A DNA stretch of 64,000 nucleotides. Source: Nitrospirota bacterium. GTDB lineage: Bacteria; Nitrospinota_A; UBA7883; JACRGQ01. Location: positions 4,500 through 68,499 of the forward strand of contig JAJRYD010000029.1 in the NCBI GenBank assembly GCA_024275955.1, read 5' to 3'. The notes beneath the pieces were generated by a model. The model searched no databases, was not told the origin of the DNA, and worked only from the letters and a program-made list of their open reading frames with translations. Within the stretch, counting starts at the first letter, position 1. Every line of letters begins with the position of its first letter. A program made the position numbers and the translations under genes. Below, one piece after another: positions 1,464 through 62,372 of this stretch.

Positions 1464-1925
1464 TTGGACAAGACAAGAAATATTTTGGTTGAGATGATAA
1501 AAGGTTTACCGTTTTTTGACGGGTTTGAAGATGATGATATAAGAAAGCTTACAACCTACATGAGTTTACGGCAGGTTCCAGAGGGGGATGTGCTGTTTGA
1601 AGAGGGCGACATTGGCGACTACCTCTTTTTCATAATTGAAGGGGTCGTCGAAATAATACTGGGCGGGGAAAGCCACGGCAATAAAGTTATCGCCTCGGTG
1701 TCGGCTGGTGCATCGGTGGGCGAGATGTCTCTTATCGACAGTTATGAAAGATCGGCAACCGTTCGGGCCGCTACTGACCTTGAAATACTAATTCTTACTA
1801 AAACAAGGTTTGACAGAGTAATTAAAGAAACTCCAGATATCGGCGTAAAGGTATTGATGGGATTGGCAAGTAATATCAGCGGCCGTCTTCGCACTTCTCA
1901 AGGACGCTATAGGGATCTTGTTTGA
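1464..1925 (+). CDS. Cyclic-nucleotide-binding (cNMP/CAP-effector) domain protein
   Basis: Motifs FEEGDIGDYLFFIIEGVVEI and GEMSLID..RSATVRA are typical of a cNMP-binding beta-roll. The start codon is TTG, preceded by a strong SD (AGGGAGG) 5 nt upstream. The gene sits directly downstream of the cyclase. Confidence 0.8.
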   Translation: MDKTRNILVEMIKGLPFFDGFEDDDIRKLTTYMSLRQVPEGDVLFEEGDIGDYLFFIIEGVVEIILGGESHGNKVIASVSAGASVGEMSLIDSYERSATVRAATDLEILILTKTRFDRVIKETPDIGVKVLMGLASNISGRLRTSQGRYRDLV

Positions 1926-1930
1926 GATAG

Positions 1931-3121: not shown

Positions 3122-3254
3122 TATTAAGCTGTTGATTTTTTTCTGCTCATGGTGCCTGTTAGGTTGCCGCGAGGCGAACCGTCTGGCAACTGTCTTGTTA
3201 CATCATAATCATCGTCACTTGGTTATTTTTTTTGGTAAGTCGATACCGCAATAA

Positions 3255-3384
3255 GGGGACTGTTTTCAAAAGAGTTTTTTGAGCATTTTAAGGGGAAGTT
3301 TATTTTCTAACTTCTTAAAAATAGAATCGTTAGAGATTGGCAATTTGTAGCAAAACCAAGATTGTCTTATTTGCCAACAGCCCC
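3255..3384 (+). repeat. Copy A of a roughly 130-nt conserved intergenic element (candidate structured small RNA or MITE-like repeat)
   Basis: It is near-identical to 58403..58531 on the same strand. The core reads aaaagagttttttRagcattttaagggRaagtttattttctaacttcttaaaaatag...gattggYaatttgtagcaaaaccaagattgtcttatt. A closing helix pairs GGGGaCTGTT at the 5' end with AACAGCCCC at the 3' end. The element lies in a 739-nt intergenic gap. Confidence 0.5.
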
Positions 3385-3517
3385 GCAAGGTGTGGCTATC
3401 GTGCTTTTGATGAGGCTGTTAAACTTAAAATGCTAATAAGGTTAGATATTTTCAAGCTTGGCCTGCTTTTTTGTTTTTAAGCCCTACCTGCTAGTAAGTG
3501 CAAAGGATTCGTCTCAG

Positions 3518-3546
3518 CCTTCCGGCGGAAGGTCTGTTGTTTTTGG
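3518..3546 (+). terminator. Possible intrinsic terminator: hairpin CCTTCC-ggc-GGAAGG followed by a T-rich tract
   Basis: A 6-bp GC-rich stem with a 3-nt loop is followed by tctgttgtttttgg. It lies about 135 nt downstream of repeat copy A, inside a spurious 77-aa ORF. Confidence 0.3.
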
Positions 3547-3859
3547 CAAATAGTTCACCTTTCGCATATTGCTGTGGCTGTAATTTTCATTGCAATGAAC
3601 AAGCTTTCGTATCGCTGTTTTCTGGCGGTGCTGTGCGCCTATCCTTGGCACCGATAGCCGGTGATGGAGCTAACGCAATTACTCGGCTTAAAAAGAGCTG
3701 GAGCCTATGTTACAATGCCGGATTAAGCTAGCAATACGGCATGGGGGAATGCTGGGGAGCGCGCTTGTTTCTAGTTCGGTAGAGAATATTTTATATCTTT
3801 TAGATATTTCTGCCGGCGTCAAAAATAAAATAAGCCTTGAAGGGCGGGGGTAGGAGCTG

Positions 3860-4735
3860 ATGGAGCTGAAAAACGAAGACTTTCTTGAACTAAAAAACTA
3901 TATACACAAAACGTGCGGCATACATATCAATGAGAGCAAGAAATATCTTGTACAGCAAAGGTTATCGCCTGTGGCGCAATCGCTGGGGCTTGAATCGTTT
4001 AGAAAACTTATACAAAAACTGGAGAACGATTCTGCCTTGGGAGAGAGGATAGTAGAAAGCATAACCACGAATGAAACAAGTTTTTTTAGAGATGACCATC
4101 CTTTTGGCACTTTTGGGACGATGATTCTTCCAAAGCTTGGAGAGCTGATACGCAAGAGAAAAGAGCGTCAGAATAATATGGAAGGGCCGAAAGTGAACCT
4201 ATGGTGCGCCGCGTCGTCAACAGGTCAGGAGCCTTATAGCCTTTCTATGCTGATAAGCGAGTACGTCGATTCGAATAAATATAACGGCATCTCTATAGAC
4301 GATTTTTCAATACTCGCGACAGATATTTCGTCTGAGGTTTTGTCTCAGGCTATATCTGGAGAGTATTCGAACTTGGAGGTAAGACGCGGCCTTTCAGACG
4401 AGAGAAAAAAGAAATATTTTATCAAGAGAGAACCTGACGGATGGATTCTTAGCGGAGCAATTAGAGGCATGGTCGATTTTAGAAAAATAAACCTCGCTGA
4501 AAGTTTCACAACGCTTGGCCGGTTTGATGTCATTATTTGCAGAAATGTTTTGATCTATTTTGACGACCATACTAAAGGTAGAATTTTTAGTCAATTTAGG
4601 AAGATGCTGTCTGACGATGGTTTGCTTGTTCTTGGAGCGTGCGAAAATGTCCGCCTGCTTACTGACGAATTTGAATCTTTTACACATGGGCAGACAATAA
4701 TGTATAGGCCAAAAACATCTAAGGCTCCTCGGTGA
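3860..4735 (+). CDS. cheR: Chemotaxis protein methyltransferase CheR (solitary copy)
   Basis: It carries the CheR N-terminal all-alpha domain and the SAM methyltransferase domain, with SFFRDDHPF and VWCAASSTGQEPYSL motifs. Confidence 0.85.
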   Translation: MELKNEDFLELKNYIHKTCGIHINESKKYLVQQRLSPVAQSLGLESFRKLIQKLENDSALGERIVESITTNETSFFRDDHPFGTFGTMILPKLGELIRKRKERQNNMEGPKVNLWCAASSTGQEPYSLSMLISEYVDSNKYNGISIDDFSILATDISSEVLSQAISGEYSNLEVRRGLSDERKKKYFIKREPDGWILSGAIRGMVDFRKINLAESFTTLGRFDVIICRNVLIYFDDHTKGRIFSQFRKMLSDDGLLVLGACENVRLLTDEFESFTHGQTIMYRPKTSKAPR

Positions 4736-27770: not shown

Positions 27771-30700
27771 TTGACAAGAGAAAACAGTATCGACCCAGAT
27801 AGATATACAACCGGGCCGCCATCTTTAAACTCTGGCGGGCCTAGCGTTGTATCGGTCACAGGTACGGCTGGAGGAGCCGGGAAAACTACGTTGGCACTTT
27901 GCTCGGGGATAGCTGTAGCTTCGGCCGGGCATAGGGTGCTGGTGGTCGATTTAGGTTATTCCGGCGGCCGAATGCTTTCCCTGCTTGGGATGAGCCAGCC
28001 AGACCGAAACCTTCACAACTATTTTAAGAGATCCAAAACGCTTGAAGAGGTAATTATTTCGACCACTGTTCCGCACCTCTCTTTAATTCACGGTGGGGCA
28101 ATCTTGACCGATAGCTTTCAGGGAAAGCTTACCCGCATAAACCTTTTGAGGAACCTGAGGAAACTTCCGTTCGAGTTTATTTTTCTAGATCTCGGCATGT
28201 TGTGGAACAGCCAGAGGTCGGGGCTGTTTGCCTCATCGGATTACCGTATCGTAGTCGGCACGGAGGAAGAATCTACCTCCAGCGCGGTAGTACAGCTGGT
28301 TTCTTCTAACCTATTTTCAGAACTGGGTGACTATCCAAAGCTTACGAGAGAAGATAGGGAAAGCCTCGACGCTATTGAAAACAGATTTGCCTATAACCCA
28401 GATTTTTCCGTTTTGGGTGGTCAGTTGAAGGAGCAGGTACCACCACTAAAGGAAGAGTGGGAAAAGCTGTTTTCCGGCTATGAGGTAAATATTTTTTTAA
28501 ATAAGGTTTCCTCTCTTGATTACTTTAGGTTCTTAAAAATAGGCTACGAAGAATGTTTTAGAAATGCCTCGCTTAGCGGCTACCGCTTGCTACCGATTCC
28601 GAACTGTCTTTCATTTCCAGAAGATCTTTCCGCAATTTTGAACAGCTCGTTTTTTGCCGCTTGCCGCGGGTGGATTGTAGACCTTTTGGGGCTTGGTGGC
28701 AGGGAAAACGAAGATATTGAAGTGATTTTTTCTTCGGCGCAAGAGCTTTTAAAGGGCGGCCGCGTTTCGGCCGAAATTGCCGGTAAGCCTGTTGTAAAAA
28801 ACTTTGGGAACGAAGTGGAAAAAATTGACCGTGAGATGGAGCTGGTTCGCGCGGAGAAATTTGAAGCGGTCAACCGTGCTGTTGAAAAGAGTATGTTCGA
28901 TCGTAAAAAAGAGGCATCGCATAAACTTGAACTGGAAGCGGAAGAAAAGCGGTATGCCCTTAATGACGAAGTCGAAAACCAGAGGCGCAGATTTCAGCTT
29001 GAGATGGAGAGGGAAGCCGACATCCTAAGAGCCGAAAGAGACGCAAAACTCTCTATGGAGTTCAACGAGAAATCGGCACAATTTACCGAAGAGCTTTCCT
29101 TGATACGCGCGAGCAGGATAAAGGATATGGAAAGCCAGCTGGAGAAATATTATCCAAGCGCTAGAGCCGCCTTTGAAAACGAGATGAAGATGAAAAGAAA
29201 AAGGCGGGAGATGGAGATTGAAGACGAACTTCGCCTGCTGAAGAAAAAACGGTTAAGCAAAATCGAAAATGAGCTGGCGGTAGAAGTAGATAAGGTTCGT
29301 GAAATGATATGGCAGGAACTTGAAACAAAACGCGAAACGAGAATGTCTCAGATTGACGACAGAATCCACCAGTACAGAGAGGAAAAACGCAAAGAGGTGG
29401 ATAATGAGTTTAAGAAAAAGAAAAGTTTTCAGATCTCTAAACTTGACAAAGAGATAAGCGTTCGAAGGGAGAACCTTCTTATGGATATCTTTAAGGAAGT
29501 GATGGAGACTACGTCACTTTTAGATGAAGAAGAATATCAAAGAAAGGCGAAGCTACAAAGCCGCCTAAACGCGGAACTTTCAGAAGAGAGAGAGGCGGCG
29601 AAAGCGCGAATGCGCAAGGAAGTAGATAACTACCGCGACGAAAAGACGGCTGAAATTCTAAATCAGATAAGCGCGTTTAAAAAAGAAAAGATGGAAATGT
29701 TCAAAGGAGAGGTAGACGAACTTCGCGAAAGGCTTAAGGAAGAGGCGACCGAAGAGGCAGAAGATGTACGAAAAAAGATAATAAGTAAAACTTCCGCGAT
29801 TCTGAATAGAGAACGTATTGAACGGATGGAGAAAGTAGATAGAGAAATTCGTGCAATAAGAACATCTAGAGAGTTGTCGCTCGACAAGGAGATGACAAAG
29901 CTTGAAGACAAAATGAGAGGGGAAGTACACCACAGGATTATCGAAGAGGAAAAAAGGCTTGTCTCTATGCTTGAAAAAACCTTTTCAGACAGAAAGAAGG
30001 AAAAGGAAAATATACTGCGCGGCTTTCTAAAAACCGAACGGACAAAGAAAATTACCGAGCTCAATGATGATGTTAAAAAATTAAAACAGACAATGCTGGA
30101 AAATATTTCCAGTGAGATGGAGGTTGTTAAGGCTCTTCAGGTTGAGAATGTCGAAACAGAGGTTACCAGTATAAGGGAGGCGCGGCACAAAGAACTTGAA
30201 AAGGGCCTGCAGGATGAAATAAGAGAGAGGACAAGAGCTATCTCTTACGCGATTCGCGGCAAGGAATCTAAGCTTCGCACTGAAATGGCGGAGGGGGTAT
30301 CTAATGAGGAGGTGCGGTTGCGGGCGTTGATACATGAAAACCTGAAAGTAGAATCGAACGAACTGCGCAGAAAGATGCTAAGCAAACTGGCTAGTCAGGA
30401 AGACGAGCTGAGAACGCAAAGCAGGGTTGAAGTTGATAATGAAAAAAGCCGGAGGATGGACGAGCTGGAAAGAGAAATTGATTTGAAGAAAAGAGATGGC
30501 GCCGAACTGCTTGAAGGCTGGAACAGTAGGAAGAAAGCGGAGATGCTTCGCGATGTTATAGCTGGTATTAGTGAGGAGGAAAAGCTAAGGCGCGAGCTTA
30601 TGTCCTCGGAATTAGAGTACGAGATGAAAAACGAAAGGCGCAAACGGATGATTCGATTACAGCGGCTGGAGGAAGAAGAAAGAAAAAAGCTAAAGTTGCT

Positions 30701-31151
30701 TATCGAGCGAAGCAGGCTGTCCGCGACCAGCAAAATCAAGAAAATAGCACGCGAAGAATATCTCCGGCGGCTCGACTCGATGCAAGAGGAATTTAAGATG
30801 GAGAGGGAGAGCCGGCTTGAACTATTGATAAGGGATATTGACTCTGAAAAGAAAATTCAAATGAGCCGTATAGGTGAGACGATTTTAAGGAAAAAGGAAG
30901 ATGCTCTTTTAGAGCTTGAAAACGAGCTAATCGGGGTTAGGGCTAAAAAGCTGTCTGAGGTAGAAAGATATGTGGAAACTCAAGAAAGGAAAGTAGATGA
31001 AAGGCTCGACAAAAGATATTCCGAGCTTTTAAGGAAAAAAGATGAGTGGGTAGATTTTGAGGCGAGAAAGACAGCTATTAAAGCCAAGGAAAGATTGCAC
31101 GAGGAGCTTGAATCTGAAAAAGAGCGCTGGCTTCAGGGATACCTTGCGTAA
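27771..31151 (+). CDS. Giant protein (1126 aa): N-terminal ParA/MinD-superfamily P-loop ATPase-like domain fused to about 850 aa of continuous E/K/R-rich coiled coil
   Basis: The start codon is TTG. The P-loop reads VVSVTGTAGGAGKTTLAL followed by VLVVDLG, which is the ParA/MinD architecture but without the deviant-Walker-A signature lysine. Residues from about 330 to 1126 are heptad-like ERxxKE repeats. The gene ends at TAA 31149-31151, and the frame continues into 31185..31676. Confidence 0.7.
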   Translation: MTRENSIDPDRYTTGPPSLNSGGPSVVSVTGTAGGAGKTTLALCSGIAVASAGHRVLVVDLGYSGGRMLSLLGMSQPDRNLHNYFKRSKTLEEVIISTTVPHLSLIHGGAILTDSFQGKLTRINLLRNLRKLPFEFIFLDLGMLWNSQRSGLFASSDYRIVVGTEEESTSSAVVQLVSSNLFSELGDYPKLTREDRESLDAIENRFAYNPDFSVLGGQLKEQVPPLKEEWEKLFSGYEVNIFLNKVSSLDYFRFLKIGYEECFRNASLSGYRLLPIPNCLSFPEDLSAILNSSFFAACRGWIVDLLGLGGRENEDIEVIFSSAQELLKGGRVSAEIAGKPVVKNFGNEVEKIDREMELVRAEKFEAVNRAVEKSMFDRKKEASHKLELEAEEKRYALNDEVENQRRRFQLEMEREADILRAERDAKLSMEFNEKSAQFTEELSLIRASRIKDMESQLEKYYPSARAAFENEMKMKRKRREMEIEDELRLLKKKRLSKIENELAVEVDKVREMIWQELETKRETRMSQIDDRIHQYREEKRKEVDNEFKKKKSFQISKLDKEISVRRENLLMDIFKEVMETTSLLDEEEYQRKAKLQSRLNAELSEEREAAKARMRKEVDNYRDEKTAEILNQISAFKKEKMEMFKGEVDELRERLKEEATEEAEDVRKKIISKTSAILNRERIERMEKVDREIRAIRTSRELSLDKEMTKLEDKMRGEVHHRIIEEEKRLVSMLEKTFSDRKKEKENILRGFLKTERTKKITELNDDVKKLKQTMLENISSEMEVVKALQVENVETEVTSIREARHKELEKGLQDEIRERTRAISYAIRGKESKLRTEMAEGVSNEEVRLRALIHENLKVESNELRRKMLSKLASQEDELRTQSRVEVDNEKSRRMDELEREIDLKKRDGAELLEGWNSRKKAEMLRDVIAGISEEEKLRRELMSSELEYEMKNERRKRMIRLQRLEEEERKKLKLLIERSRLSATSKIKKIAREEYLRRLDSMQEEFKMERESRLELLIRDIDSEKKIQMSRIGETILRKKEDALLELENELIGVRAKKLSEVERYVETQERKVDERLDKRYSELLRKKDEWVDFEARKTAIKAKERLHEELESEKERWLQGYLA

Positions 31152-31184
31152 AGTAATTTAGAGAAAGAGCATCTTCGCTCCAAG

Positions 31185-31676
31185 ATGCTGGAAGAGATTA
31201 AAGACGAAAAGAAGAAAATGCTCGCGGAGGCTATGGAGTCGGTCGACATTGAGAGAGAAAAACGCTTTCTGGAGATAACGGAAAGCCTGCATGGTGAAAG
31301 CAGAAAGGAGCGAGAGTCTCTCTATAAGAAGCTGGAGCTTTGGGAGCTGGAGCGCAAAGGCGAGATAGAGAGTGAGCTTGACGAGGAAAAAGAAAAACGG
31401 CTTGAAGCTTTTGAAAGAGAAATGCAGATAGAGCGCAACAGAAAAATGGAGCAGATGCGTGTCGAGATTAAGACCGAGGAGTATTCCAAACGGCAGGAGA
31501 TACTTTCTGAAATAATGCAGAGAAAGTCGGAGCTTGATAACTTTTATCAGAATGAGAAAAAGAAATATCTTGAAAGACTGCAAGATGAAATTTTAAAGGA
31601 AGGACAAAAGGGTAGAGCGCCGGAAATTCTTCAAGACGAGATCGAAAGGCTTCAACGCAAATGGCGGATGAACTGA
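31185..31676 (+). CDS. Coiled-coil protein (163 aa), in the same frame as the giant upstream gene and separated from it only by one TAA plus 33 nt with no stop
   Basis: It has the same E/K/R-rich heptad composition (ERKGEIESELDEEKEKRLEAFEREMQIERNRKMEQ). It may be the C-terminal continuation of 27771..31151, disrupted by a nonsense codon. Confidence 0.5.
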   Translation: MLEEIKDEKKKMLAEAMESVDIEREKRFLEITESLHGESRKERESLYKKLELWELERKGEIESELDEEKEKRLEAFEREMQIERNRKMEQMRVEIKTEEYSKRQEILSEIMQRKSELDNFYQNEKKKYLERLQDEILKEGQKGRAPEILQDEIERLQRKWRMN

Positions 31677-34006: not shown

Positions 34007-34486
34007 ATGGGAGTAGCAGTCTATCCGGGAACTTTTGACCCTGTTACCAACGGGCATCTTGATTTGATTAACAGGAGTTTATCAGTTTTTGGAAAGGTAA
34101 TCGTCGCTGTTGCCGATAACAGCGGGAAAGGCCCGTTATTTACTGTTGATGAGAGGGTGGAGCTTGTGAGAGAATCTACAAAAGGTATTGCGGGTGTGGA
34201 GATTTTTTCCTTTAATAACCTCCTGACGGAGTTTTGTACTATGCATGGTGCTACGGTTGTAGTGCGTGGCCTGAGAGCTGTTTCCGACTTTGAGTACGAA
34301 TTACAGCTTAGCCAGATGAACCGAAAATTAAACGATAAAATAGAATCAGTTTTTTTGATGCCTAGCGAGGAGTACACTTTTCTAAGCTCCAAAATAATTA
34401 AAGAGGTAGCAAGCTTCGGCGGTGATGTTTCGAGCCTTGTGCCGTTGCCTGTAGAAGATGCGTTAAAGAGAAAGTTTGGCAGGTAA
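34007..34486 (+). CDS. coaD: Phosphopantetheine adenylyltransferase
   Basis: The N-terminus carries YPGTFDPVTNGHLDLI (the H/TxGH nucleotidyltransferase motif). Length is 159 aa. It ends with TAA. Confidence 0.95.
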   Translation: MGVAVYPGTFDPVTNGHLDLINRSLSVFGKVIVAVADNSGKGPLFTVDERVELVRESTKGIAGVEIFSFNNLLTEFCTMHGATVVVRGLRAVSDFEYELQLSQMNRKLNDKIESVFLMPSEEYTFLSSKIIKEVASFGGDVSSLVPLPVEDALKRKFGR

Positions 34487-39538: not shown

Positions 39539-39564
39539 TTGCCCCTTAATTGCAGGGGGGGCAA
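39539..39564 (+). promoter_or_regulatory. Hairpin (TTGCCCC / 12-nt loop / GGGGCAA) that engulfs the SD and the first base of the start codon of the DUF59 gene
   Basis: The perfect 7-bp stem spans 39539-39545 and 39558-39564. The G-rich SD-like GGGGGGG lies in the loop and stem. The ATG is at 39564-39566. Confidence 0.3.
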
Positions 39565-39860
39565 TGCATAAGGAAGATATTTTAGATAGCCTTAAATCGG
39601 TTATCGACCCAGAACTCGGCATAAACATAGTCGATTTGGGTTTGATCTATAATGTTAATGTCAGCGGTAACGACGTTTTTGTTACGATGATGATGACTTC
39701 ACAGGCTTGCCCGATGGGAGACCTCCTTAAAATCGAAGTGGTTGATGCCATCAGGAAGATTTTTCCGTCCGCGGGAAAGGTAGAAGCAGTTCTTACGGTA
39801 GATCCGCCGTGGACAAACGAAATGATGTCGGGCGACGCAAGGAAACAGCTTGGACTCTAA
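39564..39860 (+). CDS. DUF59 / MIP18-family Fe-S cluster assembly protein (SufT/PaaD-like)
   Basis: It carries the motif LKSVIDPELGINIVDLGLIY...MTSQACPMG. Confidence 0.8.
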   Translation: MHKEDILDSLKSVIDPELGINIVDLGLIYNVNVSGNDVFVTMMMTSQACPMGDLLKIEVVDAIRKIFPSAGKVEAVLTVDPPWTNEMMSGDARKQLGL

Positions 39861-45704: not shown

Positions 45705-47975
45705 GTGTCCGCCCAAATAATTGAAAAACTCGATAAGCTCGCTATGCACCTTATGATGATAGACGAGTATCTTGGCGATCTTTTGCAGACCTCTGAAGCT
45801 AGTAGCATGGCTGACGAAGTTAAGGTACTGCTCGCCTCTACAGAACCACTCCAGCTTGTCGGTATTTTTGATGGAGTTTCTCAGCTGTTCGAAAAATTTC
45901 TGCTCGATTCCAGCTCCGGTAAAGGCCCTGACGCAATAAGACTTACTAATGAAGGGATAAATATTGTCAAAGATGTGCTTGGCGGAACCTCCGCTTTTGA
46001 GGACGTAAAAGATAAGTTCAATGCTCTTATCGGAGAGTTTAAGTCGGTTTTCGAAATTGAAGTTGAGGTTTTCCCTGTAGGGTCTGGCAGTGTGCCGCCT
46101 GCGCCGAAAAAGCCGGTAGAAACAGTGCCTCCTAAAGAGGAAGCCAAAGCAGATGGTGAAGGTAAGCGTACAGAGCTGGTTCTTCTGGACGAAAACGATG
46201 TCGAAATTTTCGATGGTTTTCTTGAGGAATCTTCTGAAAGTTTAGGAAAGGTGGAGGATTACCTTATCGAGCTTGAAGAAGACGCGAAGAATATGGAGAT
46301 AGTAAACTCTCTGTTTCGGATTTTTCACAGCCTTAAAGGCGCGGCCGGTTTTCTTGGTATGACCGAGGTAAACTTTCTTTGCCACCAGACCGAAAACATG
46401 CTGGATCAGGCCCGCAAGTCTATGCTCGATATTGATGCCGAGGTAATAGACATACTTCTTGCTTCAAAGGATTTGCTTGAAAAGGGGCTTCATTTTCTTC
46501 ACGACTTACTTAGCGAAGGAAGGGAAAAGCTTCCTAACTTTAGGGGAGAGTGCGACCCACTTGATGTTAAGCCGATAGTGGAGCTTATCGACAGGAAGCT
46601 TTACCTCGCTTCTATGGAAGATGATGACGATACGGGGCCTCCGAAGCTTGGACAGATTTTAGTAGAGCAAAAAGCGGTTTCCCCCGCGAAGCTGGAAGCG
46701 GCGCTGACCCAAAAATCGAAGCCTGTTGGTGAAGTTCTTGTCGAGATGGGGGTTCCAAGAAAAGATGTAGATAAAGCTGTTGCCACACAAGGCGCGAAAA
46801 AGAAAGAGTTCAAATCCTCCTCTGTCAAAGTAGACACTTCTAAGCTGAACATTTTGCTGGACCTTGTGGGTGAGCTTGTTATTTCGCAGTCGATTATTTC
46901 GCAGAATAAGGCTCTTGCCTCAGACACGAACGCGCGGCTTTCTAAGGATATTTCGGAGATGGCCAAAATTACCGACGGGATACAGGATCATATAATGAGC
47001 CTTAGAATGGTGCCGTTAAAGCAGACTTTCGGCAAAATGAATAGGCTGGTAAGAGACCTTTCTAGGAAAACCAATAAGCGTGTAACTCTTGAAGTAGATG
47101 GGGAAGATACCGAAATAGATAAAACCATAGTAGACCAGCTAAACGACCCGCTTGTGCATATCCTTCGGAATTCGGTTGATCACGGCATAGACACTGTGGA
47201 GGAGAGAATCGCCGCCGGCAAAAGCCCCGAAGGTACCGTTACCTTAAGCGCTTACCACAAAGGCGGTAACGTCGTAATAGAAATCAAGGACGACGGGAGA
47301 GGCTTGAACCTTGCGAAGCTGAAGGCAAAAGGTGTTGAAAAAGGCTTTTTTACCTAAGACGGAGAATACAGTGATGAGGAGCTTATAGAGGTAATCTTCA
47401 GGCCGGGGCTTTCTACCCACGCGGTAGCGACAGACCTTTCTGGCCGAGGTGTCGGTATGGATGTGGTGAGGAGAAATGTCGATAGCCTTGGCGGGCGTGT
47501 GGAAGTTCAGACGGTTTTGGGGGAAGGTAGCACCTTTCTTATCAGGCTTCCTCTTACGATGGCTATCGTCGATGGTATGTTAGTGCAGGTTGGAAGCGAG
47601 AGATATATAATCCCTACCATATCAATCAGCGAGTCTATAAGGCCAAAAGCGGAGCAGTTTACGAGGGTTATTGGAAAGGGCGAGATGCTCAATGTAAGGG
47701 GAGAGATGATACAGCTGGTACGCCTGCACGATCTTTTTGGAATACAAAACGGAGATAAGGATATTTCCGAAAGTCTTGTTATAATTGTCAACACTGATAA
47801 CGACAAAAGAGGTCTTTTGGTAGATGATCTGTTGGGCCAGCAACAGGTGGTGATTAAAAACCTCGACAAACGGTTGCAGGGGATAAAAGGTTTTTCAGGC
47901 AGTTCCATACTGGGTGACGGGCTTGTTGGCCTTATCCTTGATATCGGCGGTATTTTTAAGTTGGCTTCTTCGTGA
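45705..47975 (+). pseudogene. cheA: Chemotaxis histidine kinase CheA (copy 1) interrupted by a single in-frame TAA at 47355-47357
   Basis: ORFs 45705..47357 and 47457..47975 are in the same frame, with no other stop between them. The join (..EKGFFT*DGEYSDEELIEVIFRPGLST..GRGVGMDVV) aligns with the intact paralogue (..EKGVLNQAQGSAMSDEEVFNLIFHPGFST..GRGVGMDVV). Domains present are a roughly 170-aa N-terminal extension, P1 Hpt (FHSLKGAAG), P3, P4 HATPase (HILRNSVDHGID) and P5 CheW-like. Confidence 0.7.
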
Positions 47976-48043: not shown

Positions 48044-48577
48044 ATGGAAGAATTAGCTGACACTAATAAGTCGTCGGTAGAAACGGCAAATGCCAAAATA
48101 CAGTCCTCCGATGCTAATAGTCAGGAGGGGAAGTATCTTACCTTTGTTCTGTCTGACGAGGAATATGGGCTGGAAATTTTAAAAGTCCGTGAAATTATTA
48201 GTGTTATGGAAATCACTGAGGTGCCTCAGGTACCAGACTATATAAAAGGTGTCATCAATCTTAGGGGCAGGGTTATCCCTGTTATAGACCTCAGGCTGAA
48301 GTTTGGGATGCCGGCGATAGAGTATACCCGTGAGACCTGCATAATCGTGGTAAATGTACTTGATATTCTTCTTGGAATTGTTGTTGATACCGTTGCGGAG
48401 GTGTTGGATATCTCGTCGGCAGATATCGACCCATCTCCGGCTTTTGGAGGTTCTGTCGATACCGACTTTATTCTTGGTATGGGGAAGGTGAAGGGAAAAG
48501 TTAAGATACTTCTCGATATTGACAGAGTACTGTCTGTAGCCGAATTGGAAACGGTAAGGCAGGCCGATTCTACTTAG
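48044..48577 (+). CDS. cheW: Chemotaxis coupling protein CheW
   Basis: It is a single CheW-like domain (YLTFVLSDEEYGLEILKVREI...VINLRGRVIPVIDLR). Confidence 0.9.
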   Translation: MEELADTNKSSVETANAKIQSSDANSQEGKYLTFVLSDEEYGLEILKVREIISVMEITEVPQVPDYIKGVINLRGRVIPVIDLRLKFGMPAIEYTRETCIIVVNVLDILLGIVVDTVAEVLDISSADIDPSPAFGGSVDTDFILGMGKVKGKVKILLDIDRVLSVAELETVRQADST

Positions 48578-48705
48578 GCATAGAATACTGTTTTTAGGTG
48601 ACGGCAAGGCTCTTTTGTCGAGAAGGTCGGGTTTGTCGTTGTTTTCATGCTGTAAAGCCGGGTTCGTTGAGCTTTGCTTTAAGCGAGTAGAAATTAAATT
48701 ATAAA

Positions 48706-49581
48706 ATGAGTCTTTTTTCGTCAGCAACAGGTGGTCATCTGAAAGCAGAATTAAAAGATCTTACTGATGAAGACTTTGATCTTTTCCGCCGTCTCATTTA
48801 CGAACAGTCCGGTATTTCACTAAATGATACCAAGAAGGAACTGCTACGCACAAGGCTCCGCTCCAGGCTGATAAGGGAGGGGTATAGGTCGTACAGGGAG
48901 TACTACAGCTTTATAAAAAAAGACCAGACAGGCAATGCGATAGTGCCTCTGCTTGATGACATTTCGACGAACCTCACTTCGTTTTTTCGGGAAATAAACC
49001 ATTTCAGTTTTCTTGATACCGTTATCCCCAAGATGATAGCCGAAAAGGAAAAGAAGCGCGACAGCACTTTTCGTATATGGAGTGCCGGCTGTTCGTCGGG
49101 GGAGGAGGTCTACTCACTTCTTTTTACGATGCAGGCTCATTTAAAGAACAAAAAACCGGAGTGGAACCTTAAGATGCTCGCTACCGATATTTCGACAGAT
49201 ATACTCCAAAAAGCTAGCAACGGACTCTACGATGTAAAACGAGTGGACGCAGTGCCGCCGTATATGGTTAAGAAATATTTTGTAAAAGAGCTTGGCCCTA
49301 AAGGCAGAGAGATGATGCGTATCAAGCCGGAATATAGGCAGATTGTTACTTTCCGAAGATTTAACCTAATGACAGAAAACTTTCCATTTAAGCATCAGTT
49401 CGACTATATTTTCTGCCGCAATGTTATGATCTACTTCGATAAGCCGACACAGGAGGTTCTGGTGTCCAAATATCACAAACTTTTAAAGCCCAACGGATAC
49501 CTTTTTATCGGGCATTCTGAGAGCCTGACAGGGCTTAATCATAGTTTTAGGTACGCCCAGCCTACGATTTACCAAAAATAG
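48706..49581 (+). CDS. cheR: Chemotaxis methyltransferase CheR (second copy)
   Basis: It has the CheR N-terminal domain and the SAM-binding domain (IWSAGCSSGEEVYSL). Confidence 0.9.
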   Translation: MSLFSSATGGHLKAELKDLTDEDFDLFRRLIYEQSGISLNDTKKELLRTRLRSRLIREGYRSYREYYSFIKKDQTGNAIVPLLDDISTNLTSFFREINHFSFLDTVIPKMIAEKEKKRDSTFRIWSAGCSSGEEVYSLLFTMQAHLKNKKPEWNLKMLATDISTDILQKASNGLYDVKRVDAVPPYMVKKYFVKELGPKGREMMRIKPEYRQIVTFRRFNLMTENFPFKHQFDYIFCRNVMIYFDKPTQEVLVSKYHKLLKPNGYLFIGHSESLTGLNHSFRYAQPTIYQK

Positions 49582-49862
49582 AAGCATGGGATACAAGTTG
49601 CGCGAAATACGGAATTTTCATCTGGAAGCTATCGCTTCTCTATTTTTAAAGTGTAAAGATTTTTTCCAATATTATATAAATAATCATAGTTCAATAGTGG
49701 TTATGATTGCTAGAATGACTGACCGATAGGTTTACTTAAGATATAATTTTAGAAGTATGGGTGCCTTTGACAGTTAGCTGGAAAGGACGGATTGTAGCTA
49801 AGTATAAATGTTTAAAAACTCTTTGTTAAATTTGTTGCAAAGTATCGCTGGGGAGTCTTGGT

Positions 49863-51908
49863 ATGACTGATATGGATCCTGAAATATTTCGGGAATATAT
49901 GTCGGAAGTGTTCGAGTCGCTTGAAGGGCTTGACGAAAAGTTTGTCGCCCTCGAAACGAATCCAGATGACCTGAATATAGTAGATTCCATTTTTAGACCT
50001 GTTCACAGCATTAAAGGCAGTTCCGCCTTTTTTAAGCTCGATCATATTACCGGCTTTTCTCATAAACTGGAGAACCTCCTTGATGATATCAGGAAGGAAA
50101 AACGGTCTATCAACCCAACGATTATAGATGCCCTTCTCAAGGGTACCGATTTTCTTATGGAGATGTTCAAAAGGCTTGCCTCTGGCGACATGAAGGTTGA
50201 GCTTCTTCCAGATGAAAAGGACTTTATAGAGAATCTGGATGATAACCTTTCTAAAGGCGATGATAAAGCGCCAAAGACCTTTAACAGCCACCTCGACAAT
50301 ATAGACGACGCTGTCAACAGTCTTCGTGAAAGCGGTAGAGATGCCGAACTTTTAGACAAAATCTCCAAAAGCCTGTCGGTTGTCCGAAGGCTGGCGAGCG
50401 ATAAGGGGCAGGTAATAATGATAGGAGAGATTGACAGCATGCTTGGAGATGGGGCTATGCCTCAAATTGGAGTATTGGGCGACCTTCTTGTTGAACCGGA
50501 TGAGCTTCCCAAGGTAGAAAAGCTTGGCGACATTCTTGTAGGCAGTGGAGAGGTAGACAAAGAGGCTCTGGAAATGGCTCTTGCCAATAAAGAACCGGAT
50601 CAAATGGTTGGTGACGCTCTGGTAGAGCAAGGCGTAGCGACGGAGGAACAGGTAGGCAAAGCTATTGACAAGCAGAAGAAGGAGAAGGAGGAGCAGAGGA
50701 TCGCCAAACTGAGCATGACGATGCAAAAGACGATGCGCATAGACGAAGAGAAAGTCGATGAGTTTATGGAGCAGATTGGCGAGCTGGTAATCATTTCGGA
50801 AGTGTTCAACTATCTTGATAAAAGACTTAGCTCTATGGATGGAGCCGAGGTTATTTCTAAAGAATTTAAGAACGCGAACATGAATTTTTCGGAATTGACG
50901 CTAAGGCTACAGCATGGGCTGTCGGAAGTGCGGAAGGTAGCTATCAAAGGGATATTCCAGAAAATTCCACGAATAGTGCGCGATATCGCCACCGCAATCG
51001 GGAAAGATGTAGAAGTTATTACCGAGGGAGACGGTATTATGCTCGATAAAAGCCTTGCCGAGAAACTTGAAAGCCCTGTTATCCATATGGTCCGTAACTC
51101 TGTGGATCATGGCGTAGAAACACCGGATATACGAAAGGCGGCCGGCAAACCGGAAAGAGGCACGGTTCGGATTAAGGGCGAAATAATAGGTGAGACACTG
51201 CATATAACCCTTCACGACGACGGGGCTGGGCTTAATCGGGAAAAGCTTATCGCAAAGGCTATAGAAAAAGGGGTTCTAAATCAGGCTCAGGGTAGCGCGA
51301 TGTCGGACGAAGAGGTGTTTAACCTTATTTTCCATCCCGGCTTTTCCACTGCGGCAAAGGTAACGGATATCTCCGGTCGTGGTGTTGGGATGGATGTGGT
51401 TAGACGGGCTATCGACGATACCAAAGGGAAAATATCTATCCAATCCAAGCTGGGTGAGGGGTCGACCTTTACCATATCGGTTCCGATTTCCACTACGCTG
51501 GTGACTATAAACGGCCTGATTGTCGCCATAGGAGAGAGTAAGTTTATATTCCCTGTCGAGGATGTAAAGGAATCGCTAAGGCCGACCGGCGAAGAGGTCT
51601 TCTCGATTAAAGACAGTATAGAGATGGTCAATATAAGAGGAGATATATATCCCCTTATCAGGCTTCACCAAAAGTTTTCAATCGAAACCGATGTCACCAA
51701 ACCACAGGATGGCGTTTGCCTGATAATTGAAAAAAATGGAAACCGATGCTGTGTCTTGACCGACGCTATAGTGGAGCAACAGAATGTGGTGTTGAAGGAT
51801 CTTGGAGTTATTTTTCAGCGGGTAAAGTCTATTATGGGCGGAGCTATTCTGGGCGACGGTTCCATAGGACTTGTTATGAATGTAGAAGGGTTAATGGGGG
51901 AGGGGTAG
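49863..51908 (+). CDS. cheA: Chemotaxis histidine kinase CheA (copy 2, intact)
   Basis: Domains present are P1 Hpt (VHSIKGSSAF), P3 dimerisation, P4 HATPase (HMVRNSVDHGVE...GRGVGMDVV) and P5 CheW-like. Confidence 0.9.
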   Translation: MTDMDPEIFREYMSEVFESLEGLDEKFVALETNPDDLNIVDSIFRPVHSIKGSSAFFKLDHITGFSHKLENLLDDIRKEKRSINPTIIDALLKGTDFLMEMFKRLASGDMKVELLPDEKDFIENLDDNLSKGDDKAPKTFNSHLDNIDDAVNSLRESGRDAELLDKISKSLSVVRRLASDKGQVIMIGEIDSMLGDGAMPQIGVLGDLLVEPDELPKVEKLGDILVGSGEVDKEALEMALANKEPDQMVGDALVEQGVATEEQVGKAIDKQKKEKEEQRIAKLSMTMQKTMRIDEEKVDEFMEQIGELVIISEVFNYLDKRLSSMDGAEVISKEFKNANMNFSELTLRLQHGLSEVRKVAIKGIFQKIPRIVRDIATAIGKDVEVITEGDGIMLDKSLAEKLESPVIHMVRNSVDHGVETPDIRKAAGKPERGTVRIKGEIIGETLHITLHDDGAGLNREKLIAKAIEKGVLNQAQGSAMSDEEVFNLIFHPGFSTAAKVTDISGRGVGMDVVRRAIDDTKGKISIQSKLGEGSTFTISVPISTTLVTINGLIVAIGESKFIFPVEDVKESLRPTGEEVFSIKDSIEMVNIRGDIYPLIRLHQKFSIETDVTKPQDGVCLIIEKNGNRCCVLTDAIVEQQNVVLKDLGVIFQRVKSIMGGAILGDGSIGLVMNVEGLMGEG

Positions 51909-52871
51909 ATGGCATCTTCCGCGGCGATGGACGCTTTTTTTGAGGAAAGCGATTCTCATATAGAGATAGCAGAAGCGGCACTGCTTGAACTAGAGAAAAA
52001 TAAAGCCGACGCAGATACGATTAATGAGCTGTTTAGGGCGATTCATAGCATCAAAGGGAATGCCGGTCTTGTAGGGCTTACCGAAATACATGCGGCGGCT
52101 ACGGAAATGGAGACTATCCTCGACAGAATAAGAAGCGGCAAGGAAACTGTGTCGGATGAAGATAGGGATAGGCTTTTCGATGATATCGACTTGATTAAAA
52201 GCATGGTGAATAGCGCGAAAAATGATTTGGGGGTAGAAACTGAATCTGCGGTAACAGCGGGAGAGACCTCTACCCCTGATGCCGCAAAACCTGCTGATGA
52301 AACAGTAGCGCGTGCTGGTTCAGCTCCTACTTCCGCCCCTGTGGGAAAGCCTGACAAGGCGGTCAAAGTAACAGCTAAGAGCAAAGCTCTAGCTAGTGAA
52401 GGCGGAGGAACTGACGATATCCAAAAAAAGACGGTATCGTACCTCACCTTCTTTCTCGGCAAGGAGCAATATGGATTTATTATTGGTGATGTGCGTGAGA
52501 TTATTATAAAGAAAGATATAACTATAGTGCCGAACTCCAAGGAGTTTGTCGCCGGGGTAATGAACCTGCGGGGGGTGGTTATTCCTGTCGTAGACGCAAG
52601 GAAGAGGCTCGGGTTTTCCGAGCGTGGCGACCGGCCAAAAGAGGAGAATATAGTTGTCGTGGAGAATGACGGGTTGTCTACCGGAGTTCTTGTTGATATG
52701 GTAGATGATATACTAAAGCTTGAGCCGGATATGATTGTTTCCGCGGATAAGGCTCTGGGCGGTCTTAGAGACAGCAGTAAATTTATAGGTGGTCTTGGTA
52801 AAGCTGGGAAAAGTACAATTATGCTTATAGAGACATCTTCTTTTTGTGACTCCAACGAAGAGTTTTTTTAA
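51909..52871 (+). CDS. Hpt-CheW hybrid protein (CheA-like P1 domain, Ala/Thr/Pro-rich linker, CheW domain; no kinase domain)
   Basis: The N-terminal Hpt reads FRAIHSIKGNAGLVGL with a phosphorylatable His. A low-complexity linker follows. The C-terminal CheW domain reads YLTFFLGKEQYGFIIGDVREI...VMNLRGVVIPVVDAR. The start codon directly abuts the cheA2 stop. Confidence 0.8.
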   Translation: MASSAAMDAFFEESDSHIEIAEAALLELEKNKADADTINELFRAIHSIKGNAGLVGLTEIHAAATEMETILDRIRSGKETVSDEDRDRLFDDIDLIKSMVNSAKNDLGVETESAVTAGETSTPDAAKPADETVARAGSAPTSAPVGKPDKAVKVTAKSKALASEGGGTDDIQKKTVSYLTFFLGKEQYGFIIGDVREIIIKKDITIVPNSKEFVAGVMNLRGVVIPVVDARKRLGFSERGDRPKEENIVVVENDGLSTGVLVDMVDDILKLEPDMIVSADKALGGLRDSSKFIGGLGKAGKSTIMLIETSSFCDSNEEFF

Positions 52872-52876
52872 CTTAA

Positions 52877-53920
52877 ATGTCAAAAATCAAAGTTCTTATA
52901 GTCGATGATTCTGCCGTAGTGCGGAATATACTTGCCGAGGCGCTTTCCAAAGATTCTGAGATAGAGGTGGTTGGCACCGCTACTGACCCGTATGCCGCCC
53001 GCGACAAAATTGTAAAACTTAATCCCGATGTTTTGACACTCGATGTCGAAATGCCGCGCATGGACGGCATTACATTTTTAAAAAAACTTATGCATTCCAA
53101 GCCTATGCCGGTGGTTATGGTAAGCTCCCTTACGCAGTCGGGTGCCGACACCACAATGGCGGCGATGGAAGCAGGTGCCGTGGAGATTGTCGCCAAACCG
53201 GCGATAGATCTTCATAGAGGGCTCAACGACATGGTTGTTGAGATTGTCGATAAGGTTAAGGCCGCCTCCAAGGTGAAAATGGATGTGTATACGCAAAGGT
53301 TATCTGCCGTAAAAAAAGCGGCGCCGAAGGTGCTTAGCTCCGCAATGATAAAAACTACCGACAAGATTATTTCTATTGGAGCTTCTACCGGCGGAACAGA
53401 AGCTTTAAGAGAGGTTTTGATGCAGATGCCTTCCAACTCTCCTGGAATCTGCATAGTACAGCATATGCCAGCGGGCTTTACCAAAGCTTTTTCAGATAGG
53501 CTAAACGGGTTGTGCCAGCTTGTAATAAAGGAAGCAGAGAATAACGACACCGTTATACCGGGGAGGGTTCTTATCGCTCCCGGGCATAGCCATATGCTCC
53601 TTAAAAGAAGCGGTGCCAGATATTATGTGGAAGTGAAAGACGGCCCATTAGTGATGAGACACAAACCGTCCGTGGAGGTACTTTTCAATTCCACCGCGAA
53701 ATATGCCGGCGCCAACTCTATAGGTGTGATACTTACAGGTATGGGGGGGGATGGTTCATCCGGCATGCTGGAGATGAAAAAGTCTGGAGCGCATACGATA
53801 GCGCAGGACGAAAAGTCGTGCGTTGTGTTTGGGATGCCAAAGGAAGCTATCAAACTCGGTGGAGTAAACGACATCATTTCGCTGGATAAAATTCCATCAG
53901 CAATACTTAAATCTCTCTAG
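52877..53920 (+). CDS. cheB: Chemotaxis response regulator protein-glutamate methylesterase CheB
   Basis: A REC domain (VLIVDDSAVVR...LTLDVEMPRMDG) precedes a CheB methylesterase domain (GASTGGTEAL, HMPAGFTKAF, GMGGDGSSG). Confidence 0.9.
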   Translation: MSKIKVLIVDDSAVVRNILAEALSKDSEIEVVGTATDPYAARDKIVKLNPDVLTLDVEMPRMDGITFLKKLMHSKPMPVVMVSSLTQSGADTTMAAMEAGAVEIVAKPAIDLHRGLNDMVVEIVDKVKAASKVKMDVYTQRLSAVKKAAPKVLSSAMIKTTDKIISIGASTGGTEALREVLMQMPSNSPGICIVQHMPAGFTKAFSDRLNGLCQLVIKEAENNDTVIPGRVLIAPGHSHMLLKRSGARYYVEVKDGPLVMRHKPSVEVLFNSTAKYAGANSIGVILTGMGGDGSSGMLEMKKSGAHTIAQDEKSCVVFGMPKEAIKLGGVNDIISLDKIPSAILKSL

Positions 53921-54041
53921 CGGCAGAACTTCTTCTCAAACGCCTGTTTTTAGGCTTATAGATTTATCTGGTTTTAAAATTGGGATATAATCCGGTGATG
54001 GTAAACCATCTATTGATAAGGGACAACAAAAAGGGGGCGAT

Positions 54042-55397
54042 TTGGGAATAAAACTTCTTTTTGCCGATGACTCTGAAACGATGCGGAAAGTTATAAAGCT
54101 TACCCTAGAAAACGAAGGGATAGACCTTAGTGTCGTTAGCGATGGGCAGGAAGCGATTAAGGCGGTTTATGAGGCAAAGCCCGATATTGTTGTCGCGGAT
54201 ATATCTATGCCGGAAATAAACGGATTTGAGCTTTGCGCGCGGATAAAAGGTTCTCCTGAGACAAAAGATATTTCGGTTGTTCTTATTTCTGGAGAGCTTG
54301 AGAATTATGATGACGTGAGGGGTGGCTCAGTTGGAGCCGATGGACACCTGACTAAGCCGTTTAAATCTAAAGAGTTTGTTGCCGCTATTAAGAGCTTTGT
54401 GGAAAAAAAGGGGACGGCAGAGGCTTTGCCCGCCGAACAGGTGGACGAAAGCAAAGCTACCACAGCTCCTTTTGATTCCAGAAAAATTCTCACACTTACA
54501 GCTTCGCAGGGCGTTTCGCCTATGGCTGGTCAAATTATGCAGACCGACGATGAACTAGAGATTATCGAAGACGACATAGGCTTGGACGATGACCTTTACG
54601 AGGAGCTGGACGATGACGAGATGCTTATCACTCCCAACGATGTTAAAGACGAACCGCCGGGGGGTTTCTCTAGTTCTGTCTTGAGTTCCGGCAGTATGGA
54701 GAACGAGCCTCTTGATAATGACGAAATAGTTAAGGACGGTTCGTCTGCTTTGGAGGATATGCTGGTCGATGAAATTTCTGCCGAGACGGGCTTTGCCCCT
54801 TCGAACGCTCACTCTTTGGCATATAGCTTTGAGAGTGAAATAAAAGAGACGCTTCTTGATGATGACGAAATTGATTCTATCGTGAAGGAGCCTTTAGGAT
54901 CCAATCCGCTTCTTGGCAGGTCGAGTATTGAATCTTCCGGGAGTGCGGATGAGTACGATGTAGAGTCTCTCTGGGACTCGTTAAAGGACAAACATAATGC
55001 CGAGGAAGTTACAAAAGCTGTCGATGAGGCGGCGCACCGCAAGATAAGTACCGCACTTGACATCAGCGGTTCTGTGCCTGTTTCGGAGGCAGACGCGGAG
55101 CCGGACTCTTTACGGGAATCTGTAGAGGAGAGCGTGAAAGAGTTTATCGAAAAGCAGGGGAAAGAAGTTTTAGAGGAGATTATCGCGAAGTCTGTAGAGG
55201 ATAACGTAAAGCTTGTTATCGAGAGAGAGCTTGAAAGGTCGATTCGCGAAGAGGTAGCAAAGCTTGTAGGAGATAGTTTTGAGGCGGCTATGCCGGAGCT
55301 TATCGAATCTGTAAAAGGTATGATATCCGGGCTTGCACCTGGGATGGCGGCTGAAATCGCAAAAAAAACGGCAGGGCGAATAAAAAAAGAGGATTAA
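54042..55397 (+). CDS. CheY-like receiver domain with a roughly 330-aa acidic, low-complexity C-terminal extension
   Basis: The REC domain spans residues 1-120 (LLFADDSETMRK...VVADISMPEINGFE...LTKPF). The rest is D/E/S-rich and predicted disordered. Confidence 0.75.
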   Translation: MGIKLLFADDSETMRKVIKLTLENEGIDLSVVSDGQEAIKAVYEAKPDIVVADISMPEINGFELCARIKGSPETKDISVVLISGELENYDDVRGGSVGADGHLTKPFKSKEFVAAIKSFVEKKGTAEALPAEQVDESKATTAPFDSRKILTLTASQGVSPMAGQIMQTDDELEIIEDDIGLDDDLYEELDDDEMLITPNDVKDEPPGGFSSSVLSSGSMENEPLDNDEIVKDGSSALEDMLVDEISAETGFAPSNAHSLAYSFESEIKETLLDDDEIDSIVKEPLGSNPLLGRSSIESSGSADEYDVESLWDSLKDKHNAEEVTKAVDEAAHRKISTALDISGSVPVSEADAEPDSLRESVEESVKEFIEKQGKEVLEEIIAKSVEDNVKLVIERELERSIREEVAKLVGDSFEAAMPELIESVKGMISGLAPGMAAEIAKKTAGRIKKED

Positions 55398-58098: not shown

Positions 58099-58402
58099 AA
58101 CCTTCCTAGCCTTTATGTATCTTTAAGAGCTGGTATCTGGCGGTGTCAGCAGGCTAAACGATAATGTTCACACGGGAGCCGATTTCCGACATCTCCGCAG
58201 ACTTTCGTATATCCTGCGTTTCCTGCACTCTGTCGCGCTCCGCCTGTGTGACAGCGTAATTGTCCTTAAGGGCTATCTCTTTGGTTGGCGTGGTTACAGG
58301 CTGGGGAAATTCTGTATGTCCCGATATAGCTTCTGGCATCCTTACCTCATCTTTACCTTAGCTCGATTTTATACTTTTTGCAGGGATATTCAAAGCATTA
58401 TA

Positions 58403-58531
58403 GGGGCTGTTGGCAAAAGAGTTTTTTAAGCATTTTAAGGGAAAGTTTATTTTCTAACTTCTTAAAAATAGAGCCTTTGGAGATTGGTAATTTGTAGCAA
58501 AACCAAGATTGTCTTATTCGGCAACAGCCCC
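58403..58531 (+). repeat. Copy B of the roughly 130-nt conserved intergenic element (candidate structured small RNA or MITE-like repeat)
   Basis: It is near-identical to 3255..3384. Its closing helix is a perfect 10 bp (5' GGGGCTGTTG pairing with 3' CAACAGCCCC). It lies in the 676-nt gap between valS and bamD. Confidence 0.5.
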
Positions 58532-58762
58532 ATTATAGGGTGCCGGCATCTAAGATAGAATCTGAACGCAAGAGTGCAGGCCTCTTTTTATCTGGTTGTG
58601 GCTGGTGACAGCTTGATGCCGGAGATTCCTTTTTAACAGCTCTGCCGGATACGATAGTGGAGAGATAATTTTTTTTGTTAAATGCAAAAAGTCGTGTTTG
58701 CCGTTTGGGGAAAACTGCCTTTTGCTTTTGCTGGAGGCCAGTGCTACCGCTGGCGGGGCGAG

Positions 58763-58786
58763 ACAGCTTTGGCTTAGCTGTTTTTT
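58763..58786 (+). terminator. Rho-independent terminator on the plus strand (ACAGCT-ttggctt-AGCTGT followed by TTTTTT), overlapping the bamD stop codon
   Basis: A perfect 6-bp palindromic stem with a 7-nt loop is followed by a T6 run on the plus strand. The bamD stop at 58774-58776 lies inside the hairpin. Confidence 0.4.
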
Positions 58787-61118: not shown

Positions 61119-62372
61119 TTATTTCGCCCGTTTTTGGCGCATATTCAATATCGTGGTTTTCCGGGCCACGTCTATTTCTGGGGCATATACACTATCGATC
61201 ATTCCCTTCGTGTTCCCCAATATGGAGGCGGTATCGGATGAGCTCACCCCTGCATTTTTTAGCTGCTGTGCCATTGAGTGACGGACAAAAACATTAAGCG
61301 TTACTGTTGGATAACCGGCTTTAGTTGCCGCATCTTTGTATATTGCCCCTAGGATTGGGTGGGTGTATGGAGTCCGTTCCCCTTTTTTACAGTGCTTGGT
61401 AGTTCTTTTGGCCTTGTACTGGAAGATGTAGCTAGAAGGGCCAGCATTGGGGATGAGTGTCATTGAATCTCGTACTGCCTTCATCACCTTTGCAGATAAA
61501 GGGAACTCTAACCCCGCTTTGTCCTGGTCTTTCGGGAAATCTTTATAGCTCTCAATGCCGCTGGTGTTGAAGGCTCCGCTCAATATGTGTACCTGCTGTT
61601 TAAAATTAACGTCCTTAATCTTCACCGCTCTAGCTTCGTTCATTCGTCGACTTGTACCTTCTAGGAAGATAAAAATATGTATATCTTCTTCGGGGATGTG
61701 ATGCAATATCTCTGCTTGCTGATCCCCGTTTAAACCTTTTTTTCTTTTCTTCTGGACTCTCACTGAAGGCTTGGGTACAGGGGCCACGATATCGCCTCTT
61801 TTGTATGCCCAGTTAAGCACCTGCATAAGGTTGTCAATAATCTTCTTTTTAAAAGAATCTTTAAAATACTCCTGCTTACTGTGCTTTTTTCGCAACGTGC
61901 CTAGATGTTCTTTGAAATCTTCAAGAAGGGGGTAGCTTATATCCGCAACATCATATTTATCTAAAAACGAAAGATATGTATTTATCGTAGCTTCCTTATG
62001 CTGGTAACTGCCGATAGACAGCCAGCCATCAGAACCGGGCTTCAATTCCGTTCTGGCCTTCATCTTTTCTAAATAGAAAATCTTGTAGTTTACAAACTTG
62101 TACTTATTTCGCTGGCCACTTTCCCATTTCTTGGGATTAAAGGAGCCATCACTGATTTGAGACACAAGCAATTGTTTCTCGGACACCGCTTTTAAAAGAG
62201 ATAGCGTATCTCCATCACGGTCGTGGTATCTCTCTATAGACACCTTTTCGCGTCTCCACCGCCCCCGAATACGAATATAGACCTTGTTGGGGATTGTAAA
62301 GATGGTCGAGACGAATTTTAAAAAGAAGACTCTGATTATCACGCTCTTTTGCCTGCATAAAATCACTCGCAT
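61119..62372 (-). CDS. Tyrosine-type site-specific recombinase/integrase (phage integrase family); start uncertain
   Basis: The C-terminal catalytic region includes ..R..., H.LRHS.A..L and a terminal Tyr (VRHSMAQQLKNAGVS...SVYAPE). The N-terminus has a SAM-like domain. No adjacent tRNA is visible. Confidence 0.75.
   Translation of the reverse strand: MRVILCRQKSVIIRVFFLKFVSTIFTIPNKVYIRIRGRWRREKVSIERYHDRDGDTLSLLKAVSEKQLLVSQISDGSFNPKKWESGQRNKYKFVNYKIFYLEKMKARTELKPGSDGWLSIGSYQHKEATINTYLSFLDKYDVADISYPLLEDFKEHLGTLRKKHSKQEYFKDSFKKKIIDNLMQVLNWAYKRGDIVAPVPKPSVRVQKKRKKGLNGDQQAEILHHIPEEDIHIFIFLEGTSRRMNEARAVKIKDVNFKQQVHILSGAFNTSGIESYKDFPKDQDKAGLEFPLSAKVMKAVRDSMTLIPNAGPSSYIFQYKAKRTTKHCKKGERTPYTHPILGAIYKDAATKAGYPTVTLNVFVRHSMAQQLKNAGVSSSDTASILGNTKGMIDSVYAPEIDVARKTTILNMRQKRAK

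Follow-up and report, generated by a model that had tools for sequence, protein, structure and literature searches.

The window analysed here, a stretch of 64,000 nucleotides taken as a whole, carries a chemotaxis kinase gene, cheA1, that is split by one in-frame TAA, and the question is what this stop represents. A first-pass annotation of the sequence had offered three alternatives, namely a nonsense mutation that made the gene a recent pseudogene, an assembly error, or a site of read-through or recoding. Its description of two co-framed halves around a single TAA is borne out by the window sequence: the TAA at 47355-47357 lies in the same frame as the GTG at 45705, 550 codons upstream, and is followed by 205 open codons that are closed by a TGA at 47973-47975. 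The interrupted gene is arranged as follows.

45705..47354, + strand: cheA1 5' part, 550 codons, with the N-terminal extension, Hpt/P1, P3 and the first half of P4/HATPase_c
47355..47357, + strand: in-frame TAA within P4, between the G1 and F boxes
47358..47975, + strand: cheA1 3' part, 205 codons plus TGA, with the second half of P4 (F and G2 boxes) and P5/CheW-like

Joined, the two halves give a complete CheA with a read-through translation of 756 aa, and a single TAA cuts this one cheA gene. Pfam searches placed Hpt at residues 168-253 (E = 1.5e-12), H-kinase_dim at residues 371-432 and the first half of HATPase_c in the 5' part, and the second half of HATPase_c followed by a CheW-like P5 domain in the 3' part. 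The P1/Hpt domain contains the phospho-accepting His in the motif FHSLKGAAG, whose H, S, L and K are invariant among orthologues. The read-through translation also contains P3, P5 and a P4 with all four boxes; the N box (HILRNSVDHG) and the G1 box (DDGRG) are carried by the 5' part and the F box (FRPGLST) and the G2 box (GRGVGMDVV) by the 3' part. The stop had been assigned to the linker between the kinase domain and P5. This placement proved incorrect, as the TAA falls within the HATPase_c domain of P4, with the G1 box 17 residues upstream and the F and G2 boxes 13 and 28 residues downstream, and cuts the Pfam profile at about position 46-55 of 111. P4 and P5 are therefore not encoded in one unbroken frame. 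The P3-P5 region matches solved CheA structures (E = 4e-95 for 8c5v), and in this comparison the TAA aligns to the E. coli CheA loop TVSENMSDDEV. When read through, CheA1 resembles the canonical CheA of E. coli and Thermotoga maritima (PDB 8c5v, 1b3q) in its P1/Hpt, P3, P4 boxes and P5; it differs from them in the broken frame between the G1 and F boxes and in the presence of ~160 extra N-terminal residues. This ~160-aa region ahead of Hpt (window 45705-46200) is common to Nitrospinota orthologues, with the consensus ILEKLDKLAL..., and has no Pfam match.

The 5' part has a public gene call, P0001, which was found in a search of 5.8 billion proteins; it is 537 aa long, 100% identical and starts at the ATG of codon 14. 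The 3' part corresponds to a second public gene call, P0273, of 172 aa. Both calls, although separate, lie on a single 108,116-bp NCBI contig, and the TAA at 47355-47357 therefore exists in the deposited public assembly. No ATG, GTG or TTG is found in the 33 codons 3' of the TAA. The earliest possible start is the ATG at 47457, within the G2 box, which is also where the public gene caller began the downstream ORF of 172 aa. Within the GRGVGM codons (GGC CGA GGT GTC GGT ATG; 47436-47459), a Shine-Dalgarno-like GAGG happens to occur 7 nt 5' of this ATG. Re-initiation at ATG 47457 could produce at most a P5-only, CheW-like fragment.

The alignment to orthologous cheA genes proposed in the first-pass annotation was carried out, and a sense residue was found at the TAA column in 59 of 59 homologues (P in 21, K in 16, A in 8, E in 7, S in 2, D in 2, and L, Q and G in one each), without a gap around the site. 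The split of cheA1 is not a chance pattern, as it interrupts a conserved domain and the 59 homologues align to it without gaps. Judged from the residues in this column, the TAA sits at a variable loop position. We also considered whether two compensating frameshifts had occurred at the T6 tract immediately 5' of the TAA, and ruled this out, the alignment being gapless on both sides. At the orthologous site, the loci that we fetched have the codons AAA, TCG, CCC, CCA and GAG; the closest orthologue (62% identity) has AAA, one transversion from TAA. After P0001, the next best matches to CheA1 are full-length CheA proteins of 750-910 aa with 62-53% identity, and those of them with a source name come from Nitrospinota/Nitrospinae MAGs. 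One of these proteins, P0003 from a Nitrospinota MAG, is the product of an intact cheA1 (769 aa, 61% identity to the window CheA1), and the genes around it follow one another as they do in the window: NTP-transferase, ADH, lgt, thyX, cheA1, cheW, cheR, cheA2, Hpt-CheW, cheB, response regulator and valS. This synteny identifies the window gene as the orthologue of an intact cheA1. As in a nonsense pseudogene, the stop thus stands where syntenic intact orthologues have a sense codon.

We searched protein, genome and metagenome collections for this site and found no sequence from the same species. In a targeted protein search with the 277 residues around the TAA, the top non-self match had 69% identity, and an exact 32-base DNA pattern across the stop gave 0 matches in metagenome contigs. 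A scan of genome contigs with the CheA1 alignment, in which the motifs are very general, returned mostly distant CheAs, the best being from a Nitrospinales MAG with 57% identity.

The sequence downstream of the stop is as well preserved as that upstream. Compared with 26 orthologues, CheA1 has a mean identity of 0.707 over P3 plus the half of P4 that precedes the stop, and of 0.701 over the 204 residues that follow it, giving a downstream/upstream ratio of 0.99 for CheA1 compared with 0.93-1.05 for intact orthologues. Of the columns that are invariant among the 59 homologues, CheA1 keeps 62/62 upstream and 42/43 downstream (104/105 in total), the lone departure being a conservative change of L to M. 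The relaxed constraint or decay 3' of the stop that would mark a nonsense pseudogene is not seen. Since the downstream codons are conserved like the upstream ones, either the stop arose very recently, or it is not real, or it is tolerated.

An intact paralogue, CheA2, is encoded in the same chemotaxis operon, the remainder of which spans 48044..55397 on the + strand with the following genes.

48044-48577, + strand: cheW
48706-49581, + strand: cheR
49863-51908, + strand: cheA2, intact, 681 aa
51909-52871, + strand: Hpt-CheW protein, P1+P5 only
52877-53920, + strand: cheB
54042-55397, + strand: response regulator, end of the che operon

The residues around the cheA1 stop read KGFFT-x-DGEYSDEELIEVIFR (also given as ...KGFFT-x-DGEYSDEEL...), where x is the TAA position 47355-47357. 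It had been stated that the residues after the TAA match CheA2 one by one. This holds from SDEEL through GRGVGMDVV to the end of P5, over which BLASTP aligned the two proteins with 40% identity; it does not hold between the stop and SDEEL, where CheA1 and CheA2 differ by 2 residues in length.

We also examined how TAA is used elsewhere in the window. The 51 gene models end in 20 TAA, 19 TAG and 12 TGA, so that TAA is the commonest stop, and the TAA-ended genes show full-length Pfam domain matches. The two genes named earlier as examples of genuine TAA termination, coaD (34007-34486) and the DUF59/FeS_assembly_P gene (39564-39860), do both end with TAA. Reassignment of TAA to a sense codon was rejected, because TAA normally terminates 20 of the 51 gene models with complete Pfam domains. 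The median distance to the next in-frame stop is 11 codons after a terminal TAA and 10.5 after a TGA; these distances match and there is therefore no sign of back-up stops. Folding of 47340-47460 revealed no stimulatory RNA structure (z = +0.67, with 148 of 200 shuffles folding at least as well), and neither a tRNA gene nor an Rfam match was found in the 64-kb window. A stop conserved at the orthologous position, as would be expected of a read-through or recoding site, was observed in 0 of 59 homologues. On present evidence, a recoding site is not indicated at the cheA1 TAA. A further TAA at 1449-1451, between a HEAT-repeat gene and a cNMP-binding gene in the same frame, was tried as a third interruption and rejected as an ordinary gene boundary, since a strong Shine-Dalgarno sequence (AGGGAGG) and then a TTG start come after it and both flanking proteins have complete domains.

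A second gene with an in-frame TAA, which the first-pass annotation had also reported, was confirmed in the same window.

27771..31676, + strand: gene for a ParA/MinD-like ATPase with a long charged coiled coil; second in-frame TAA at 31149-31151

In its product, a charged coiled coil of ~900 residues comes after a ParA/MinD-like P-loop domain. When the N-terminal 400 residues were searched exhaustively against 1.84 billion representative proteins, the family proved to be very rare, with only three full-length-type relatives of 25-27% identity (P0121, 1298 aa; P0122, 1320 aa; P0123, 1158 aa); a metagenome scan for relatives of the gene yielded none that was confirmed. The read-through length of 1301 aa compares with 1298 and 1320 aa in two of these homologues. 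The alignment is gapless across the TAA, where the homologues have D, E and A, and the C-terminal motif RLQ.xWRxN, common to all relatives, falls 3' of the stop (RLQRKWRMN in the window, RLQKTWRLN in homologues). On this alignment, the TAA at 31149-31151 is a genuine interruption. Among about 50 further genes in the window, we saw no frameshifts and no other split or truncated domains, and the assembly of the window is therefore not generally noisy.

The occurrence of two events of the same type in 64 kb had been put forward as significant, and it carries little weight. TAA accounts for 40% of the possible single-base nonsense changes in the window genes (39% in cheA1 and 43% in the coiled-coil gene), so that two TAA events have a p of about 0.17 and are unremarkable. 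Both rank among the longest genes of the window, and together they account for 12% of all nonsense opportunities. A random substitution in the window genes would create a stop in about 3.8% of cases (6,578 of about 172,800).

Our favoured explanation, to which we give about an even chance, is that the cheA1 TAA is a real and very recent single-base nonsense substitution. In its favour are the presence of the stop in the deposited assembly, the AAA codon of the closest orthologue, the intact 769-aa syntenic cheA1 and the intact CheA2. Against it, the downstream 205 codons show no decay and an error in base calling or consensus would look identical; moreover, two internal stops in about 51 gene models are on the high side for a free-living bacterium. 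We nevertheless infer that the base at 47355-47357 is real rather than an error, and both interrupted genes are plausibly dispensable. In such an event, a presumed ancestral sense codon such as AAA, GAA or CAA would have changed to TAA within P4. Ribosomes would terminate at this codon, as UAA is read by both release factors, RF1 and RF2, to give a truncated CheA1 of 550 residues comprising P1, P3 and half of P4. Missing from this product would be the F and G2 boxes needed for ATP binding and also P5, through which the kinase is coupled to receptors and CheW. Given the established functions of the CheA modules, we infer that truncated CheA1 would be kinase-dead and uncoupled. Its loss would presumably be tolerated, the same operon encoding an intact CheA2 and the Hpt-CheW protein.

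A sequencing, consensus or assembly error would explain the same alignment, and we consider this a real possibility, held at rather less than even confidence. The true codon would then be a sense codon (e.g. AAA, GAA or CAA), cheA1 would encode an intact 756-aa CheA, and the TAA in the coiled-coil gene would be explained likewise. Such an error is consistent with the perfectly preserved downstream sequence of cheA1 and its gapless alignment, with a second event of the same type 16 kb away in which the downstream sequence is again intact and conserved, and with the nature of the assembly, which is fragmented (108-kb contig) and comes from an uncultured Nitrospinota lineage of which public collections contain a single sequence. 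However, at ~3.8% stop-creating substitutions, two stops imply roughly 50 substitution errors in 64 kb, and this is difficult to reconcile with the lack of frameshifts, the full-length domain matches in every other gene and the 104 of 105 invariant columns that CheA1 keeps. Of the three alternatives offered in the first-pass annotation, a nonsense pseudogene and an assembly error thus both fit and are not separated by these data, and the third, read-through or recoding, is without support.

Functional read-through would require low-level suppression of TAA, either by an ochre-suppressor tRNA encoded elsewhere or by a leaky context, yielding some full-length CheA1 and coiled-coil protein. Two in-frame TAAs within 64 kb, both followed by fully conserved coding sequence, are compatible with this, and the 64 kb of genome examined leave room for a suppressor tRNA elsewhere. 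We nevertheless regard it as unlikely: the stop is absent from 59 of 59 cheA homologues and from 3 of 3 coiled-coil homologues, TAA terminates 20 of 51 genes with complete domains, and back-up stops, a 3' RNA structure, tRNA genes and Rfam matches were all missing from the window. UAA is, in addition, the least leaky stop codon in bacteria. A broader version, in which this Nitrospinota lineage tolerates in-frame TAA through a weak ochre suppressor tRNA or leaky termination and still makes full-length CheA1 and coiled-coil protein, would account for the perfect preservation of the two downstream halves; we consider it very unlikely. A naturally split CheA, in which P1-P3-half P4 and half P4-P5 are translated separately and reassemble into an active kinase, is the least credible, and we judge it extremely improbable. 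Split arrangements do exist in other bacteria, as in Rhodobacter sphaeroides, where CheA3 consists of P1+P5 and CheA4 of P3-P4-P5, and a P1+P5-only gene is present in the same operon as cheA1. However, the break in cheA1 is inside the P4 fold and not at a domain boundary, the second piece does not have a start codon and ribosome-binding site of its own at the break, and no homologue is split at this site. As the first start is ATG 47457 in the G2 box, the F box and part of the G2 box would be untranslatable, and a functional two-piece CheA1 kinase is therefore implausible.

Set against known systems, a recent nonsense allele of cheA1 most closely resembles the internal-stop pseudogenes flagged by NCBI PGAP, with one in-frame stop in a conserved domain of an otherwise full-length gene that has intact orthologues and an intact paralogue, and with a gene caller that splits the locus into two ORFs (P0001 and P0273). 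It is unlike them in that the downstream part is undecayed, making the event very young or an error. The R. sphaeroides CheA3/CheA4 system is similar in that the window operon also has several CheA-type genes, including the P1+P5-only protein at 51909-52871, but the R. sphaeroides proteins are split between domains and have their own starts, whereas cheA1 is broken inside P4 and its second piece is startless. In programmed read-through or reassignment, such as the UGA or UAG recoding of some bacteria and phages, coding likewise continues in frame past the stop; unlike such sites, the cheA1 stop is a TAA, is unconserved, lacks a stimulatory structure and lies in a window where TAA is the commonest terminator and no suppressor tRNA was found. 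Literature searching on cheA nonsense pseudogenes found nothing specific to a case of this kind.

The locus is a real feature of the deposited sequence but not an unusual one, being either a cheA pseudogene with an internal stop or a base error. If the stop is real, one of two CheA kinases has just been lost; such a loss-of-function allele is routine, the chemotaxis operon being redundant, and cheA1 should be annotated as a pseudogene. If the TAA is instead an error, there is nothing out of the ordinary about cheA1. For annotation, 45705-47975 is best treated as one interrupted cheA and not as two ORFs, and the same applies to 27771-31676. Wider interest would arise only under the unlikely read-through scenario.

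Several further observations were made in the window. The TAG of cheA2 directly abuts the same-frame ATG of the Hpt-CheW gene (window 49863-52871), and the end of cheA2 itself contains a Shine-Dalgarno-like GGGGGAGGGG, before the Hpt-CheW gene. An abutting junction (TAA ATG) is also kept in a Nitrospinota MAG (locus L001, 14194-17193), and the arrangement looks like translational coupling. The operon ends with a response regulator whose receiver domain and C-terminal ~150 aa, the latter without a Pfam match, are both conserved and are joined by a linker that differs greatly in length. As seen from comparison of the following loci, the protein has 451 aa in the window, and 819 and 856 aa in a related MAG represented by two near-identical assemblies.

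Window, 54042-55397: response regulator
L001, 18360-20819: response regulator
L002, 18360-20930: response regulator

Between the convergent valS and BamD/YfiO-like genes, 58099-58773 (675 bp) has no ORF of at least 70 aa, no tRNA and no Rfam match. A phage-integrase-family gene is located on the minus strand at 61119-62372, between trkH and a type II/IV secretion ATPase gene, with no tRNA gene near it within the window. A cluster at 96-4735 encodes a HEAT-repeat protein, a small cNMP-binding protein with a TTG start, a multihaem cytochrome (MtrC/c554-like) and a second cheR, and may represent a separate sensory module.
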